Notes under the pieces: model-generated
Databases searched by the model: none
Seen by the model: the letters and a program-made list of their open reading frames with translations, nothing else
Told to the model about the DNA's origin: nothing
Part shown: positions 22,741 to 51,981 of the stretch, in pieces
How positions within the stretch are numbered: the stretch's first letter is position 1
Layout: the number at the start of each line of letters is the position of its first letter
Source of the DNA: a virus
Direction: 5' to 3' (one strand)
DNA: 64,000 nucleotides
IMG/VR virus record: IMGVR_UViG_3300032265_001314
Span: 1-64,000 of that record
Made by a program: the position numbers and the translations under genes

Positions 22741-23316
22741 TTATTCATCCTCGTCCTCTTCAATGAAATCATCCTCGTCGAAATCTGGGACAGTACTAGG
22801 ATCATCGTAGTATTTGTATAAGGGTTCGTTGGGCATGATCTCACGATACTTGCCTGGCAACATCAATCCTAATACAGTCATGTCTTTGGGACTGAGTATA
22901 TCTGTGACATAGAAAGTGCTACTACATCTACCCGGTATCCTCTTGACTGGACCGTGTCTAACCTTGCCCTTGACGATGTTTGCGAAAGCATTACCAACTT
23001 CCCAGTTGAGCTGGATACGTGTAATACCTTTCTCCTTGTTGCGGAGCCGTGTGATATCGTGTTCTGTCAATACACAGATATTCGCACAGTTATCCTCATC
23101 AATCGTCACGAGACAATCTTTGAATTTAAGTGCGCCTTTGGTCCTTACATTATCGGGAGTTTCTTTTGTCGTCCAAGGTATGTTAGCATCAACATGCTCA
23201 ACATAATAGGTTTCACCCTTGGCCATCACTATCCACATTGGGACGGTGGAATCTTCTAAATGCTTTTTATTAAAGTGGAATACTGCTTCTTTACATACTA
23301 ATTCAATCTAGGCCAT
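22741..23316 (-). CDS. Hypothetical protein with in-frame amber codon at codon 3 (MA*IELVCKEAVFHFNKKHLED...)
   Basis: AAGGAGA SD, then ATG(23316) GCC TAG(23310-23308), then an open frame continuous with ORF 22741..23238 (576 nt = 192 codons). Confidence 0.75.
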
Positions 23317-23320
23317 AATA

Positions 23321-23345
23321 ATTTCTCCTTTGTTAGATGTTTATG
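23321..23345 (-). repeat. 25-bp promoter/RBS direct repeat, copy A
   Basis: CATAAACATCTAACAAAGGAGAAAT; 24/25 identical to 24053-24077. Confidence 0.85.
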
Positions 23346-23356
23346 GTTTAAAAATT

Positions 23357-24049
23357 CTATTTCTTTTCGCCTAATAGTTGTAGAAGATTAATAAAGATAT
23401 TAATAAAGTCTAGGTAAAGATTGAGGGCACCAACTACTCCGGCTTTTTCGCGCTCTTCACCATACGAATTATAATAAGTCTCTTTAATAGTCTGCATATC
23501 ATATGCAGTTAGTAGCGTAAATATTAACACACCAATAGCACTAATAGCAAGTGTCATGATACTGCTCTGTAGGAAAATGTTTACTATACCAGCAATCATC
23601 AACCCAATCAACCCCATCATTAAGAATGACCCCATACTACTTAGATCACGCTTAGTAGTATATCCCCATAATGCCATGCTACCAAAAGTAGCAGCACTGA
23701 TAAAGAACACCTGGAAGATACTGCCTAACTTAAAGATTAGAAAGATACTGCTTAGGCTTAATCCCATAGCTGCGGCAAATACCCAGAGGAACATCTTAGC
23801 TGCTGACGAATCGATCTTATCGATAACAAAAGCAAAGATTAGAGATAATCCCAACGGAGCAAAAACTGCTATCCACTTGAGAGGGCTTCCCCAAATATAC
23901 TGGGCTAACTCAGGCGATAACCCAATCCAAGCACTAACAATACCGCTAATAACCAAAGCGATAGACATATTGCTAAACACACCTAATAGATAGTTCCTAA
24001 GGCCCATATCATATTGTTGTTCGTGTGTATTATAAGCATATGTTTCCAT
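23357..24049 (-). CDS. Bax inhibitor-1/YccA family membrane protein
   Basis: About 7 TM helices; GYTTKRDLS, LTAYDMQTIK, GALNLYLDFINIF; ends in TAG. Confidence 0.93.
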   Translation of the reverse strand: METYAYNTHEQQYDMGLRNYLLGVFSNMSIALVISGIVSAWIGLSPELAQYIWGSPLKWIAVFAPLGLSLIFAFVIDKIDSSAAKMFLWVFAAAMGLSLSSIFLIFKLGSIFQVFFISAATFGSMALWGYTTKRDLSSMGSFLMMGLIGLMIAGIVNIFLQSSIMTLAISAIGVLIFTLLTAYDMQTIKETYYNSYGEEREKAGVVGALNLYLDFINIFINLLQLLGEKK

Positions 24050-24178: not shown

Positions 24179-24250
24179 TGGCGCTCTGTATGGGAGTTGA
24201 ACCCATCCTTGCAGTTTTAGAATCTGCTAGCTCTCCGCGAGCAACAAAGC
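24179..24250 (-). tRNA. Atypical tRNA with CUA anticodon (amber suppressor-like)
   Basis: GCTTTGT T GCTC-GCGGA-GAGC T AGCAGA-TTCTAAA-ACTGCA AGG ATGGG-TTCAACT-CCCAT ACAGAGC G CCA; 72 nt with encoded CCA. Confidence 0.8.
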
Positions 24251-24308: not shown

Positions 24309-24863
24309 TTATAGTGTAGCACCACCTAGAGGGCGATTGCAACCACAAAGTTCACCAGTACCTAGAGCATCTAATACACGTAGAGTCTCTTCTGGACTGC
24401 GGCCTACGTTTAGATCATTTACTGTGACGTGCTGGATAACATTATCTGGATCTACGATAAAAGTAGCTCGCAGACAAGCACCGCTATCTTGATGGAAGAT
24501 ACCAAGCTGTCCCACTAGCCCGCGTTCATCACGTAGTGTATCTGCAAACATCCAGCTGTTGGTCTTTTTTAGATCTTCGTGATTATTGCGCCAAGCTAAC
24601 TTTACATATTCATTATCTGTATTACCGATCAGCAACTTAGCATTGCGATCTTCAAACTGTTCTACCAACGCATCGTATGCTACAATCTCAGTAGGACATA
24701 CGAATGTAAAATCCTTGGGATAAAAAACGATAACCTTCCACCAACCTGCGAAACTGTTCTCGTCAATCATTTCAAACGCACCTGGCGGCTCATCATCATT
24801 TAGCACACCTGGACGTACTCCGGTAACCATAAATGGGGTAATCTTATCGCCTACTGTCTTCAC
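24309..24863 (-). CDS. ahpC: Peroxiredoxin (AhpC family)
   Basis: FYPKDFTFVCPTE, RATFIVDP, VGRSPEETLRVLDAL, GELCGCN. Confidence 0.95.
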   Translation of the reverse strand: MKTVGDKITPFMVTGVRPGVLNDDEPPGAFEMIDENSFAGWWKVIVFYPKDFTFVCPTEIVAYDALVEQFEDRNAKLLIGNTDNEYVKLAWRNNHEDLKKTNSWMFADTLRDERGLVGQLGIFHQDSGACLRATFIVDPDNVIQHVTVNDLNVGRSPEETLRVLDALGTGELCGCNRPLGGATL

Positions 24864-31692: not shown

Positions 31693-31816
31693 TTTTGAAA
31701 ATATATACGATATATGGATGTTTGGATATAGGTTACCTATAGACGCTGCTATTTTTCTCGGAACTATGTTTGCTTTGCTCTGCGTAGCAGCTGTCTGCCA
31801 ATCATTTAAGTTATAA
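31682..31816 (+). CDS. 44-aa single-TM peptide (not in ORF track)
   Basis: MISNFENIYDIWMFGYRLPIDAAIFLGTMFALLCVAAVCQSFKL. Confidence 0.4.
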   Translation: MISNFENIYDIWMFGYRLPIDAAIFLGTMFALLCVAAVCQSFKL

Positions 31817-32374
31817 TTTTAAGAAGTTTTTTACTGCTGCTACTGTGGCATCGCTTTGCAGTATCTCATAATGGTTAGCAGCTATCTCCGCAACATTACC
31901 GCAAGTCCATCCTGTCTGTACTTTAATAGGCAATACTCCGTCGTTGCTTTCATATATAAAAGGATTAAATCCTTTATTAGCTATTAAATGTAGAACAGGT
32001 AAGTGATCATAACGCATTTCGTGTATCTCTTGGACTTGCCTGCTGCTATTCGCTATCTTGCCTATGAGACTTGCTCTGCTCATATAGAGCTGTATAAGAT
32101 TTAGATCCAGACCAGCTAATGGGCTAGCGAGAGTTATAATACCTTTACATAATGTGTCTTGGCTCATATGTAAAGCGATCATACCACCCAGGCTATGTCC
32201 AATAGCAACATATGGTTCACGCATCACACCTATGCTCATAGCTAGGATATCTTCGTAAGCATTAACACGATGATCGTAATCAACGCAATGCCAATCTTTG
32301 ATTTTGGTCTTGTGCTTTAGATAGTTAAAACTGATGCTACTGCTCCAAGCACCGTGGATACCGAGTATCTTCAT
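31811..32374 (-). CDS. Alpha/beta hydrolase (lipase/esterase-like)
   Basis: IHGAW, GHSLGG nucleophile elbow, NDGVL, NHYEIL. Confidence 0.88.
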   Translation of the reverse strand: MKILGIHGAWSSSISFNYLKHKTKIKDWHCVDYDHRVNAYEDILAMSIGVMREPYVAIGHSLGGMIALHMSQDTLCKGIITLASPLAGLDLNLIQLYMSRASLIGKIANSSRQVQEIHEMRYDHLPVLHLIANKGFNPFIYESNDGVLPIKVQTGWTCGNVAEIAANHYEILQSDATVAAVKNFLKL

Positions 32375-32377
32375 AAC

Positions 32378-33376
32378 CTATTTAATCTCCGTTAAGTTGT
32401 CTAGGAATGTCTTAGTACATATAGCCCAATCATATTTTTTACTGCTTGCTTCAACAATGGCACGATCACATTCCAGAGCATATGCTATAGCTACTTCTAA
32501 ATCATCATCCATATAACCATTGATTCCGTTCTCTACTACATCGACAGGTCCAGTGACTGGATAAGCTGCTATAGGAGTACCACAAGCTATAGATTCTAAC
32601 ATAACCACACCAAATGTATCGCTCTTGCTTGGAAAAACAAACACATCAGAATTAGCATAATATTCTGCTAGTTCTTTACCTTTCTTATATCCTGCATAGT
32701 TTACATAAGGGTACTTTTGCTTCAATTCATCTAGGTAAGGACCATCCCCGACCAGTATCTTAGTTCCCTCTATCTTTACGCTACAGAACTCGTCTAATCC
32801 TTTTTCTTTGCTAGCACGACTAACACAAAGTATTATAGGTCTTTTTACTTCTAACTTTTCTCTTAACTTACTAGTAAATAGATCTCCGTCAACTCCTCTA
32901 TTCCAAACTTCTAACCTTTGGAAGTCTCGATTGCTAAGTTCTGTTTTCATAGTGTTTGTAGTTACTAATACTTTTGTTGAAAACTTATGGAACCATCGGA
33001 CTAACCAGTAGCCCCAATCAACTGGCAACTTAAAATAGGTGTTTAGATATTCCGGAAACTTAGTATGATAGCTGGTGTTGTGTGGTATGCTACGTTTGTC
33101 TACTTTACAATACCAACGTGCAGCTAATCCTAATGTACCTTCGGTGGCTATATGTATAGCATCAGGTTTAAAGTTTTCTATCATAGGACCAACACGCCAT
33201 ATGTCTAAACTAAGCCTAACTTCAGGATAGCCTGGAGCACCTATGGTTTTAAATTGACTAGGTTCGATCACCTGTACAATGTGTCCCCAAGACTCTAACT
33301 GTTTAACTGTGGCTCTTAGTGTAGTGACCACACCATTTATATTAGCCCAAGTATCAGTTACTAGCGTTATCCTCAT
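32378..33376 (-). CDS. GT4 glycosyltransferase (Agt/MgtA-like glycolipid synthase)
   Basis: VTDTW..INGVVTTL, IHIATEGTLG, YHTKFPEY, FPSKSDTFGVVMLESIACGTP; ends in TAG. Confidence 0.88.
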   Translation of the reverse strand: MRITLVTDTWANINGVVTTLRATVKQLESWGHIVQVIEPSQFKTIGAPGYPEVRLSLDIWRVGPMIENFKPDAIHIATEGTLGLAARWYCKVDKRSIPHNTSYHTKFPEYLNTYFKLPVDWGYWLVRWFHKFSTKVLVTTNTMKTELSNRDFQRLEVWNRGVDGDLFTSKLREKLEVKRPIILCVSRASKEKGLDEFCSVKIEGTKILVGDGPYLDELKQKYPYVNYAGYKKGKELAEYYANSDVFVFPSKSDTFGVVMLESIACGTPIAAYPVTGPVDVVENGINGYMDDDLEVAIAYALECDRAIVEASSKKYDWAICTKTFLDNLTEIK

Positions 33377-34094
33377 TTCGGATTATCTCCCAAGTACCAT
33401 CATAGTTTTCTACTAGTGCCGTACAACTCTCGCACCAGTCACCACAGTTCATATATTCAATATCATTTATCTTACGTATGTTAGCGTGATGTATGTGCCC
33501 ACATACTATACCTACGCACTCTTCTGCCTTAGCATATCCACTCAGTTTATCTTCGTAGCTTCCCATAAAATTGACAGCAGATTTAACTTTGTATTTGGCC
33601 CATTGGCTCAATGACCAGTAAGGCAGTTTGAATAAACGTCTGATCTTATTAACAATAACATTAAGCCTCATACTAAAATCATAGGCTATAGTTCCAAAAT
33701 GGGCAAGCCAAGCTGCATTTTTCATTACCACATCAAATTGATCTCCGTGTATGATTAATATAGGTCTATTCTTTGTATCAATATAAATGGTCTTTTCACG
33801 TATCTCTACATTACCAAAGAACTGATCGTCAAAGTTGCGTAATACTTCGTCGTGATTACCGCTTATATAAACAACATCAGTTCCTTTACGTGCCTTACGT
33901 AATATCTTTTGTACCACATCGTTGTGTGCTTGAGGCCAATATATACTTTTACTCATAGCCCAGCAGTCTATAATATCACCTACTAGGAATAGCTTTTCAC
34001 TTTCTGTGTCTCTCAAAAAATTTAATAGCTTGTCTGCTTGGCACATCTTTGTCCCGAGATGCACATCTGATATGAAAATGCTTTTATATTTCAC
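33354..34094 (-). CDS. LpxH/PlcP-like metallophosphoesterase
   Basis: ISDVHLG, GDIID, GNHDE, HGDQFD, CGHIH, NCGDWCES. Confidence 0.88.
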   Translation of the reverse strand: MKYKSIFISDVHLGTKMCQADKLLNFLRDTESEKLFLVGDIIDCWAMSKSIYWPQAHNDVVQKILRKARKGTDVVYISGNHDEVLRNFDDQFFGNVEIREKTIYIDTKNRPILIIHGDQFDVVMKNAAWLAHFGTIAYDFSMRLNVIVNKIRRLFKLPYWSLSQWAKYKVKSAVNFMGSYEDKLSGYAKAEECVGIVCGHIHHANIRKINDIEYMNCGDWCESCTALVENYDGTWEIIRNEDNASN

Positions 34095-48353: not shown

Positions 48354-49120
48354 TATGCATCATCCTTGTGTCTACGGAAGGTCCATTTGTCAAACCCGTG
48401 TTTGGCTATCTTAACAACATCGTTGGTGATCTCTACCATTGGATTAGGATTGCAGGGAATCACACCTCCAACAAACATACTGATCTCTTGGAACAGAGTG
48501 TAGGGATCGATCGCTTTAGGGAAGCCGTAATCCTTGAGAGACTTGCCGTTTTCTGCAGAGTTGCATTGCCACATTATAGGATTTCTCCTATAGTAGCCTC
48601 GATCTCTGCGCTCGCACCAAACTGCTGTAACTACCCTGTTATCAATCAACCATTCTAGCTGTTGTGCTGTAGCTGCTATAGGGATAAAGAAGGTTTTAAG
48701 ATCGGGAAATATATCTTTCTCCGTCTCTAACTTCTCCCACTTGTATCTTTTAGAAGAAGGCTTAGCTACTTCTCTATCAAACCCTGCTAGCCAGGCAACA
48801 AAGTCATCATAGCGCCAGAATACGTTAAGTATCTCACTACCAAACTCTTTTACTACACGTATTCCGCCATAGTGTTTTCCTGCTACATAGATGCTGATAG
48901 GCAACAGCACCAAAACAGTCATACCTAATGCAGGATCTTTATACTTAAGAGTGTTGTTGTCACTCCAAGATTTGCCTTTAATGATGCTATGGGGATAGCC
49001 CGCATAAAGCGGACAATCTCTGTCAGAGATCTCTTTGTGCTCACGCACAAAGACAACTTCGCTATCTTGCCCATATGCTAGGGCAGAATCATAATAATCG
49101 TGCCCACCTATGATACGCAT
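48353..49120 (-). CDS. Conserved phage hypothetical protein
   Basis: MRIIGGHDYYD...FQEISMF...KHGFDKWTFR. Confidence 0.7.
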   Translation of the reverse strand: MRIIGGHDYYDSALAYGQDSEVVFVREHKEISDRDCPLYAGYPHSIIKGKSWSDNNTLKYKDPALGMTVLVLLPISIYVAGKHYGGIRVVKEFGSEILNVFWRYDDFVAWLAGFDREVAKPSSKRYKWEKLETEKDIFPDLKTFFIPIAATAQQLEWLIDNRVVTAVWCERRDRGYYRRNPIMWQCNSAENGKSLKDYGFPKAIDPYTLFQEISMFVGGVIPCNPNPMVEITNDVVKIAKHGFDKWTFRRHKDDA

Positions 49121-50361
49121 TAGCTATCTCCATCAAACTGATAATTCCAATGTGCTCCTTCCCAAAGGCCGCGCACACTATCTATCCTAGTCTGTGTTCC
49201 GCAGTTCTTCTTGATAGCATCGATGATCATATTGCGGGTATTCTTACCATCAAACTTACCAAAGATAAACTGCGGAGCGAAAGGATCCTGGTCCTTGATA
49301 GTAGGCATCCACTGTAGGGCATAGGTCTTGCGATCCAATCCGGCATTCTGTACCATCAACCAATACTTATCGTACTTGTCAACACTGCTAGCGATACCTC
49401 CCCAGAACTCAGATTCAAAAGCTTCTAGACGCTTGCGATCGTCATCTAGCATAAAGCTCTTGATATCATCGATACCTGCAGAAGTTATCATTTCAACCAC
49501 ATTCTTCTCTTGGCTCAGATGATCCTTAGTCTTATGGATGCGAAGGTACCATTCGCCTTTGACCTTGAGCATATGCCCATCGTCAAAGCGCACGATCCAT
49601 CCTTCGATTCCTTGTGAGGAACGAGTTTCATCCATTAGTAAAGCCAAGTCCTCCGAATCACCATCGTATGCCTTGACTACGTCGATGCCAAACTGATCTC
49701 CCAAAGCACACATTTCACCGTAGCTCTTATATTCTCCAGTGACAGTGTGACGCAGAGCGATGAGAACCAGACGATCCTCAGGATAATCAATCACGATACG
49801 CTGCTTGCGGCTGCACCATTCAAATACAGGAGTTATACCTAGTGTCATGACAAACATAGCAAATCGAGCATAATCGGGATTGCGAGCCACAAATTCCTCT
49901 GCACCCATACCTACATCAGTAAGACCCATCTTGGTGCCCCAACGCACATATCCACCCGATATGATACCATCAGGTCCTGTGGTAGTACCTACAATCACAG
50001 GAGTGATCATAGATCCATCAAGCTTCTCAAGCACGACGTGAGGTTGTGAAAAATCGATCTTGCTGAACTGCGTCTCATCACGCTCGTTCACATTGAAAAA
50101 CTTGTGCAGGCGGCGGCTCATTATAGTGCCATCCTTGTTAAACAATAGACCACGACACTCACGACGGATGGCGTTACGCTCTGCGATCAGATCGTGCTCA
50201 AGTTCGGGAGATTCATCTACAGGCGGAAAGGTATCAGCCATTGCGACCATGTAGTTAACCACATAGCCCCATTCACGCTCTGCGATGATGAACTCATCAC
50301 ACCCCTCGATAGCAGGACGCACATCATCTAGATGCTGTATAGACGGAAACTGATAACGCAT
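49120..50361 (-). CDS. rnlA: T4 Rnl1-like RNA ligase
   Basis: RECRGLLF, HKFFNVNE, EKLDGSMI (motif I), FEW, EGWIV, KVKGEWY. Confidence 0.9.
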   Translation of the reverse strand: MRYQFPSIQHLDDVRPAIEGCDEFIIAEREWGYVVNYMVAMADTFPPVDESPELEHDLIAERNAIRRECRGLLFNKDGTIMSRRLHKFFNVNERDETQFSKIDFSQPHVVLEKLDGSMITPVIVGTTTGPDGIISGGYVRWGTKMGLTDVGMGAEEFVARNPDYARFAMFVMTLGITPVFEWCSRKQRIVIDYPEDRLVLIALRHTVTGEYKSYGEMCALGDQFGIDVVKAYDGDSEDLALLMDETRSSQGIEGWIVRFDDGHMLKVKGEWYLRIHKTKDHLSQEKNVVEMITSAGIDDIKSFMLDDDRKRLEAFESEFWGGIASSVDKYDKYWLMVQNAGLDRKTYALQWMPTIKDQDPFAPQFIFGKFDGKNTRNMIIDAIKKNCGTQTRIDSVRGLWEGAHWNYQFDGDS

Positions 50362-51522: not shown

Positions 51523-51981
51523 TCAAGCGGTAATTATCTCGTCAAAGCCCTCATCGTATGAAGGCTCTTCCAAACTGCGGATCATGCCGTTGAGCACGTT
51601 CCACGGGATGCTCTTGCCTGGACGGCTATCTAAACGCCGCTGATGCTCATCCCACTCTGGAGTAGGAAAGAACACTGCAATCTTCTCGTAGTCCTTTGGA
51701 ACTGACTGTAGCTTGCCAGCACGACTCTTCTTAGAGATATTAGTCTGATCTAGTATCACATCCTGTCCTGCCGCAAAAGCGATTTTCATTTCTTGCTGCA
51801 CGGCTGCGGTAGCAATCTTAATCATATCAGCAAACTCAGCGTTATATGAGGTTCCGTTCTCTTCTGCTCGCTTTTCAATATGATAATCGCTGCTTACGAT
51901 TAGTTCACCATTTTGGTAATGCTTGAGCCAAGTGCTCTTACCTGCGCCCGGCACACCTATTAACATATAAAACTTAGGCAT
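51523..51981 (-). CDS. P-loop kinase (AAA_33, polynucleotide-kinase-like)
   Basis: GVPGAGKST, SSD, ILDQTN...R, EEPSYDEGF. Confidence 0.85.
   Translation of the reverse strand: MPKFYMLIGVPGAGKSTWLKHYQNGELIVSSDYHIEKRAEENGTSYNAEFADMIKIATAAVQQEMKIAFAAGQDVILDQTNISKKSRAGKLQSVPKDYEKIAVFFPTPEWDEHQRRLDSRPGKSIPWNVLNGMIRSLEEPSYDEGFDEIITA

Follow-up and report, generated by a model that had tools for sequence, protein, structure and literature searches.

A compact tRNA(CUA) of a jumbo phage and its likely target, an early in-frame UAG in a neighbouring gene

The locus and its tRNA gene

The present analysis deals with a tRNA gene with the anticodon CUA in a 64,000-nt stretch of viral DNA, in the following called the window, which forms the start of a single IMG/VR virus record of 91,271 bp (IMGVR_UViG_3300032265_001314). 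The gene of this tRNA(CUA) is located on the minus strand at 24250..24179, encodes 72 nt including the CCA end and carries the anticodon, which reads UAG, at 24220..24218 (minus strand). It was recognized by ARAGORN and Rfam, by a cloverleaf as minimum-free-energy fold and by orthologs. Directly upstream, a peroxiredoxin (AhpC/TSA) gene was assigned with Pfam (24309..24863, minus strand). On the other side lies the gene of a membrane protein of the Bax1-I family (BAX inhibitor/YccA-like; 23357..24049, minus strand; Pfam PF01027, E 1.8e-56), which ends in TAG, with a second stop two codons later. Beyond it, at 23316, starts a gene with an in-frame UAG as its third codon, referred to as the gated gene.

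The record is linear, has a G+C content of 42% and reaches a completeness of 27% (CheckV); hence, only part of a jumbo phage genome is covered. The host is probably an alphaproteobacterium, and cultured relatives infect Rhizobiaceae. The phage uses the standard code. Over the 91-kb record the coding coverage was 88.3% in table 11; it rose to 88.7%, which is no real gain, when TAG was taken for a sense codon. TAG, the rarest stop in this phage, terminates 21 of 148 open reading frames (ORFs). A genome-wide recoding of TAG (code 15) was excluded by the ORF statistics, the flat coverage and the occurrence of one gated ORF only.

ARAGORN calls the tRNA at exactly 24179-24250 on the minus strand; its label 'tRNA-Pyl' comes solely from the CUA anticodon. 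With the Rfam model RF00005 a score of 32.2 bits was obtained in a local scan, so that the cloverleaf passes the gathering score (29), as expected of a canonical elongator tRNA. The whole-window gathering scan with the same model missed the gene due to the fast filters. The acceptor stem comprises 7 bp (GCUUUGU/ACAGAGC) with G1-C72 as first pair and is followed by the discriminator G73. U8 is the single base between acceptor and D stem; the D stem has 4 bp (GCUC/GAGC), the D loop 5 nt (GCGGA), and two bases (UA) follow. A canonical elongator, in contrast, has two bases (8 and 9) as spacer and a D loop of 7-11 nt. The anticodon stem consists of four Watson-Crick pairs (GCAG/CUGC) and is closed by A.A at 31.39, with the loop UUCUAAA. 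The minimum-free-energy fold of ViennaRNA was a cloverleaf with the same 4-bp anticodon stem, and the T arm is canonical (AUGGG-UUCAACU-CCCAU).

An earlier note on this DNA, written from the sequence alone, had described a tRNA gene at 24179-24250 without stating the strand. The gene proved to be real, with an ARAGORN call at the same coordinates on the minus strand. The length of 72 nt, the 7-bp acceptor stem with G1-C72, the discriminator G, one base before a 4-bp D stem, the 5-nt D loop, the encoded CCA, the loop TTCTAAA and the canonical T loop TTCAACT were confirmed. A further part of the description, a six-position anticodon stem with a 3-nt variable loop, was not reproduced, since ARAGORN, Rfam and ViennaRNA agree on four pairs and a 4-nt variable loop (AAGG). 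The former count is wrong because two non-pairs were counted as stem; neither of the extra positions is paired in any of 10 compact relatives.

These relatives were reached from several sides. For the upstream peroxiredoxin, 582 related stretches were found in IMG/VR viral contigs, many of them adjoining tRNA clusters; thus, it is a common auxiliary gene of the related phage group. This gene led to two close relatives of the window (L001 and L002; loci of related phages are numbered in this way), both carrying the same tRNA with a swap from U-A to C-G in the T stem. The same 72-nt layout was present in the distant orthologs L331 (75% identical) and L344 (68% identical). Among these five window-type tRNAs, including that of the window (identity 68-99%), compensatory double changes were observed in 9 of 21 pairs and not a single pair is broken. 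U8, the D loop (G-N-G-G-A; GUGGA in L331 and L344), the anticodon loop and the T loop are nearly constant. After addition of L013, L203, L360, L391 and L378, giving the set of 10 compact relatives, double changes affected 13 of 22 pairs, and the acceptor and D stems were 100% paired. Covariation of this extent was reached in none of 500 shuffles, and slid registers remained far below it as well. The variable loop has 4 nt (AAGG) in the window-type tRNAs and 5 nt in the remaining compact relatives. The CUA anticodon is invariant in all relatives examined. By comparison of these sequences, the structure of the tRNA is shown to be under selection; the covariation among homologs that the earlier note had proposed to look for was thus found, with structure and anticodon conserved.

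Within the anticodon arm, 31.39 (24222 and 24214 in the window) is never a Watson-Crick pair (A.A or C.A in all 10 compact relatives), and it is also unpaired in most of the wider phage CUA family. The outer position of the stem is likewise unpaired in 10 of 10 (A.A, A.G or C.A). With 31.39 unpaired, the anticodon loop effectively comprises 9 nt. The mismatch is thus a conserved feature. Exact matches to the anticodon arm GCAGATTCTAAAACTGC in IMG/VR were limited to the two close relatives, besides eight chance matches inside genes. A search in cultured-phage DNA with 5 kb around the tRNA matched only the neighbouring tRNA-Ala and tRNA-Pro.

The leader UAG and the gated gene

The gated gene begins at 23316 with ATG-GCC-TAG-ATT-GAA. 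Its leader ATG-GCC-TAG extends over 23316..23308 (minus strand) with the amber codon, codon 3, at 23310..23308. A Shine-Dalgarno sequence (AAGGAG, 23325..23330, minus strand), read from the sequence, is located 8 nt ahead of the leader ATG. The body of the gene (22741..23307, minus strand) encodes 188 amino acids past the UAG and ends in an acidic C-terminal tail. This is the single combination of Shine-Dalgarno sequence, ATG..TAG and long ORF in the 91-kb record. A Shine-Dalgarno sequence also precedes the leader ATG in L331-L333, L368, L375 and L397. In L001 and L002 'MA*IEL' is kept and the gated gene follows 142-160 nt past the tRNA; the Bax1-I gene is absent at that place. The sequence reads 'MA*IEL' or 'ML*IEY' in homologs with 43-47% identity, and a CUA tRNA precedes every one of them.

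A profile search for the gated protein returned 275 related IMG/VR stretches, and 83 loci were examined. The in-frame leader TAG was kept in 80 of them (47-62% protein identity), 1-2 codons before the first conserved residue. The leaders ahead of this TAG are MS, MA, MQ, MK, ML, M or MTQK. For 74 loci at least 2.5 kb of upstream sequence was available, and 69 of these have a CUA tRNA ahead of the gated gene in the same orientation, at a median distance of 303 nt (minimum 15 nt, often 15-50 nt). The comparison of the loci shows the tRNA to be linked to the UAG-gated gene, and the leader UAG of the gene 23316..22741 is the likely target of the window tRNA.

The conserved protein sequence starts directly after the UAG. 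The best-conserved residues (E2, F10-K15, D19, P23-W25) are found ahead of the next possible start codon (M24), and the codon following the UAG is GTA, ACT or TTA in some loci. Therefore, an internal start or re-initiation cannot explain the conservation. As a general mechanism, re-initiation at the AUU past the UAG was dismissed, since this codon is replaced by GTA, ACT or TTA in other loci. Decoding of a quadruplet (UAGN) by the effectively 9-nt anticodon loop was rejected as well; ATG, UAG and ORF share one triplet frame in at least 64 loci.

The gated protein belongs to no Pfam or PHROG family. Foldseek gave no match in the PDB, and in a viral library one uncharacterized homolog (41% identity) besides weak rows of DUF2061. 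In the protein atlas no match was obtained at ≥0.9. The AlphaFold2 (AF2) model reached a pLDDT of 88 overall and of 93 for the N-terminal domain alone. With VIA-align, a generic ferredoxin/RRM/ACT-like fold was the only result for the C-terminal half (Z about 6), and for the N-terminal beta domain nothing exceeded Z 3.2.

Homologs were also identified in cultured phages. Rhizobium phage RHph_I1_18 (MN988519, L414; 2473-2715 and 2734-2811) carries an unannotated short homolog with the N-domain only. Its leader ATG-AGT-GAG-TTC-ATG-TAG (MSEFM-TAG) is located about 30 nt upstream of an annotated 'tRNA-Pyl(cta)'. This phage offers a tractable laboratory system for the module. In Agrobacterium phage Atu_ph07 (L415) and Sinorhizobium phage Phosso (L416, 1534-2713) the homolog is free of TAG and N-terminally extended: the N-domain forms the C-terminus of proteins of about 175 amino acids, two genes past a Pth2-type peptidyl-tRNA hydrolase. 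This proximity hints at a link to translation termination or peptidyl-tRNA recycling. Pth2 (PF01981) was not found in the 91-kb record. For Atu_ph07 only an opal suppressor was described (PMC6102473).

Further features of the window concern translation and RNA repair. A permuted tmRNA of the alpha-proteobacterial type is encoded at 939-1335 on the minus strand (Rfam 988-1352, RF01849, 140 bits; tag peptide ANDNVATYEMALAA). With tmRNA and amber suppressor in one genome, the former may handle read-through products. Genes of an Rnl1-like RNA ligase (phrog_562; 49120-50361), an AAA_33 kinase-like small protein (51523-51981) and a metallophosphoesterase (33354-34094), all on the minus strand, could form a candidate tRNA-repair kit against host anticodon nucleases. 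A GT4 glycosyltransferase gene (33376..32378, minus strand) stops with TAG at 32378-32380, and an alpha/beta-hydrolase ORF continues in frame one codon on (31811-33376). Suppression of this TAG would result in a GT4-hydrolase fusion of about 523 amino acids; this is possibly a coincidence. Apart from the shared frame, nothing was found in favour of such a fusion.

Comparison with tRNA-Pyl and the phage CUA tRNA family

The earlier note had compared the tRNA to tRNA-Pyl because of its dimensions. The hallmarks of tRNA-Pyl are a 6-bp anticodon stem, a 3-base variable loop, a single spacer base, a 5-base D loop and the lack of G18G19/T54-Psi55-C56 (PMC1851642). Two of these five, the single spacer base and the 5-nt D loop, are present in the window tRNA, and to this extent the dimensions do match. 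They differ in the anticodon stem, which has 4 bp with flanking positions mismatched in the relatives, and in the variable loop with its 4 nt. Furthermore, G18G19 (positions 3-4 of the D loop) and the UUC starting the T loop are invariant in all 10 compact relatives. In contrast, 66 real tRNA-Pyl show no conserved GG in the D loop and have the T loops UUAGAUU, UGAAACU or UGCGACU.

From these 66 distinct pylT of archaeal and bacterial genomes, all ungapped and of 69 nt, a tRNA-Pyl covariance model was built. The window tRNA aligned to it without gaps and scored 44.7 bits (E 3e-12); real tRNA-Pyl, as training members, scored 87-89 bits. A check with such a model had likewise been proposed in the earlier note. 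The scores track the architecture: 35-45 bits were obtained for the window type, 26-35 bits for other compact phage tRNAs and 12-23 bits for those with canonical body. Therefore, the score mostly rewards the shared dimensions and the invariant CUCUAAA-type loop. A model of the phage CUA family from which the lineage of the window had been left out gave the window tRNA 46.1 bits. A different phage CUA tRNA (L120, 621-691) with fully paired anticodon stem, 3-nt variable loop, G73 and a D loop of normal size obtained 35.6 bits on the tRNA-Pyl model.

For recognition by PylRS, G73 and G1-C72 are major and G10-C25, A11-U24 and G8 moderate identity elements; the exchange G73A lowers PylRS function about 100-fold (PMC1851642). 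The window tRNA possesses G73, G1-C72 and G10-C25, but C11-G24 and U8. Position 73 is A in the ortholog L344 and in most of the CUA family.

In agreement with the earlier note, no gene for PylS, PylB or PylD was found, now in the whole 91-kb record (about 27% of the genome); PylC was not searched. A class-II core was detected neither in this record nor in five related fragments, and tRNA-synt_2 and tRNA-synt_1c gave no match in the record. PylS was also absent from three relatives of 99-100% completeness, one of 70% completeness and one complete cultured Rhizobium phage, all of which bear the module with other tRNA body types.

Hence it is very improbable to us that the phage took up a tRNA of genuine tRNA-Pyl (pylT) kinship, which would receive pyrrolysine or some other unusual amino acid from an enzyme like PylRS and insert it at the leader UAG. 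Such an origin would account for the length and layout, which equal those of real tRNA-Pyl, for the gapless score on the 66-sequence model, for the three identity elements and for the T arm GGGUUCAACUCCC, which resembles the bacterial tRNA-Pyl GGGUGAAACUCCC. These similarities are countered by a score far from that of true members, by the three failing hallmarks, by the costly A73 of L344 and most of the family and by the lack of A11-U24 and G8. Moreover, the pyl genes that were searched are missing from the record, as is pylS from the complete relatives, and the cultured relatives have Rhizobiaceae as hosts. Judging from the sequences, we conclude that the window tRNA is not a tRNA-Pyl and that it resembles tRNA-Pyl in size without being akin to it. 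Formal phylogenetic proof of descent is precluded by the short length of tRNAs.

About 110 distinct CUA tRNAs were collected from related phage loci. The anticodon does not vary in this family, nor does its 3' loop context (A37, mostly A38); the bodies, in contrast, differ widely, with a spacer of 1-3 nt, a D loop of 5-10 nt, a variable loop of 3-6 nt and mostly A, sometimes G, as discriminator. The traits resembling tRNA-Pyl also occur singly: L373 combines a 1-nt spacer with a 7-nt D loop, and the 5-nt D loop is found with a 2-nt spacer in L399, L029, L207, L206 and L101 and with a 3-nt spacer in L390, L402 and L389. In a maximum-likelihood tree of the gated protein the compact tRNA forms do not group together. 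At least seven changes are required by well-supported branches, and the strict form (1-nt spacer, 5-nt D loop) appears in at least three separate clades with differing D-stem sequences. This pattern fits repeated shrinkage or swapping of tRNA genes better than one import of pylT. A clear parent isotype was not found among the other tRNAs of related phages; the best non-CUA hits were weak matches to tRNA-Thr. Eight CUA tRNAs of the family were missed by ARAGORN and found by the covariance model at 44-74 bits (L333, L344, L346, L353, L360, L378, L389 and L391). Four of them are strictly compact (L344, L360, L378 and L391). Genes of this kind are likely under-annotated in phage records.

Proposed role, alternatives and known systems

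We regard it as quite probable that the window tRNA is a functional amber suppressor of a standard-code phage, and that the conserved task of its family is the decoding of one deliberate UAG placed 1-5 codons into a conserved neighbouring gene. Without the tRNA, release factor 1 (RF1) would terminate translation at the leader UAG after a dipeptide. Once the tRNA is made, matured and charged, presumably by a host synthetase, it would compete with RF1, and we infer that read-through would then give the protein of about 190 amino acids. The tRNA would be the key to a one-codon translational lock with a presumably regulatory purpose. It is probably of no consequence which residue is inserted, because the UAG is part of a short, non-conserved leader of variable length and sequence. 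Irrelevance of the residue would relax the identity constraints and leave the tRNA body free to drift. In this way, drift could have brought the spacer to 1 nt and the D loop to 5 nt in the lineage of the window, so that these coincide with tRNA-Pyl in size, while the elbow of G18G19 and U54-U55-C56 was kept. The earlier note had considered a novel suppressor class charged by an unknown synthetase. An amber suppressor that appears functional is retained from this suggestion; the tRNA is a variant in body plan within the large phage CUA family and not a new class of its own.

Several observations weigh against this interpretation. In the window, the Bax1-I gene and 862 nt separate the tRNA from the gated gene, and co-transcription is not evident. 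Three loci (L351, L377 and L382) have a CUA tRNA and no leader UAG; the tRNA may have further uses. The scatter in the tree could stem from swapping of tRNA genes instead of repeated shrinkage. The gapless alignment to the tRNA-Pyl model scores higher than the alignment to the general tRNA model of Rfam. The phage-CUA-family model discriminates poorly, as it also gives an ordinary tRNA-Ala 43 bits, and covariance scores alone cannot settle the descent of the tRNA. Furthermore, the record covers only about 27% of the genome.

A suppressor without dedicated target would act genome-wide on UAG codons of host or phage genes, for takeover of the host, C-terminal extensions or buffering of nonsense mutations, and the gated gene would be incidental. 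Orphan CUA tRNAs without known target were described in standard-code jumbo phages (XacN1, PMC5852040). TAG as the rarest stop (21 of 148), the phage tmRNA as a possible means to process read-through products and the three loci without leader UAG fit this explanation. Nevertheless, we consider it unlikely, since a leader UAG in 80 of 83 loci and an adjoining tRNA in 69 of 74 are hard to explain without a functional tie; a general and a dedicated role are not mutually exclusive. Somewhat more doubtful is an orthogonality that was selected repeatedly. In this case the compact core would be poorly recognized by host synthetases or tRNA-targeting defences, and a dedicated phage factor, perhaps encoded in the 73% of the genome that the record lacks, may attach a non-standard residue. 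If true, a bacteriophage would possess an orthogonal tRNA system of natural origin that converges on the solution of tRNA-Pyl.

The earlier note had also suggested a decoy for anticodon nucleases or a decaying tRNA. A decoy or substitute against host defences that target tRNAs, with no role in decoding, deserves hardly any credence. The Rnl1-like RNA ligase and the AAA_33 kinase-like gene do suggest a conflict over tRNA integrity, and the conserved 31.39 mismatch may be counted on this side as well. Yet the invariant CUA, the context A36-A37-A38, the encoded CCA and the conserved cognate codon nearby are signs of decoding. No nuclease is known to have a target with CUA anticodon, which counts against the decoy; this suggestion gained no support, and there is a direct target for decoding. 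Decay or loss of function is the least credible of all. The low Rfam score of 32.2 bits, the failure of the whole-window gathering scan, the unusual D region and the mismatch in the anticodon stem would be in line with it. It is refuted by the covariation and the invariant anticodon: among the five orthologs with 68-99% identity, 9 of 21 pairs have changed in a compensatory way, no pair is broken, and the loops are nearly invariant.

If a functional suppressor with one dedicated codon is the correct explanation, the orphan CUA tRNAs of phages would gain a testable function in unlocking the translation of a gene at one codon. The searchable literature yielded no account of a dedicated tRNA that opens a gate of one codon, and a review of non-canonical tRNAs is without any mention of phages (PMC7609411). 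Several lineages reach the dimensions of tRNA-Pyl with a canonical elbow, which may be seen as a natural experiment on the minimal working core of a bacterial-type elongator and is of possible practical interest for the engineering of suppressor tRNAs. For annotation, caution is advisable in two respects: the label 'tRNA-Pyl(cta)' in phages rests on the anticodon only, and gated genes are unannotated or called from an internal ATG.

Compared with known systems, the window tRNA shares with tRNA-Pyl of Methanosarcinaceae and Pyl-using bacteria the CUA anticodon, the 72 nt with CCA, the one-base spacer, the 4-bp D stem and the 5-nt D loop. G1-C72, G73, U33 and A37 as well as the gapless alignment to its model are also common to both. 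It differs in the 4-bp anticodon stem, the 4-nt variable loop and the retained G18G19 and U54-U55-C56. In addition, G73 is not constant among its orthologs, the model score is half as high, the pyl genes were not found (pylC was not searched) and the host range is Alphaproteobacteria-like. Mammalian mitochondrial tRNA-Ser(UCN) also has one base between acceptor and D stem and a small D loop. In contrast to the window tRNA, it has a 6-bp anticodon stem and a 3-nt variable loop, and it differs in anticodon, organelle and ancestry.

Closer to the window are the CUA tRNAs of other phages. The orphan tRNA of the Xanthomonas jumbo phage XacN1, which uses the standard code and for which the authors found no target (PMC5852040), and that of RHph_I1_18 (MN988519) are likewise phage-encoded, TAG still serves as stop, and gene finders label them Pyl or Sup by the anticodon. 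Unlike the XacN1 tRNA, the window tRNA has a conserved putative target codon that can be named, the leader UAG of the neighbouring gene; unlike the RHph_I1_18 tRNA with its canonical body, it has a compact D region. Phages with recoded TAG (crAss-like, Lak and others) possess suppressor tRNAs and read TAG as sense (10.1101/2021.08.26.457843, PMC10879173). There, too, a phage tRNA overrides UAG in a standard-code host, which may control when or whether phage genes are expressed. The window phage, in contrast, would override one codon in one gene without genome-wide recoding.

A bacterial counterpart in logic is the autoregulation of prfB (RF2), in which an early in-frame UGA and a +1 frameshift sense RF2. 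As an analogy of logic only, an early in-frame stop would in both cases tie synthesis to the competition of termination with alternative decoding. The gated gene differs from prfB in that it would use triplet read-through by a dedicated tRNA.

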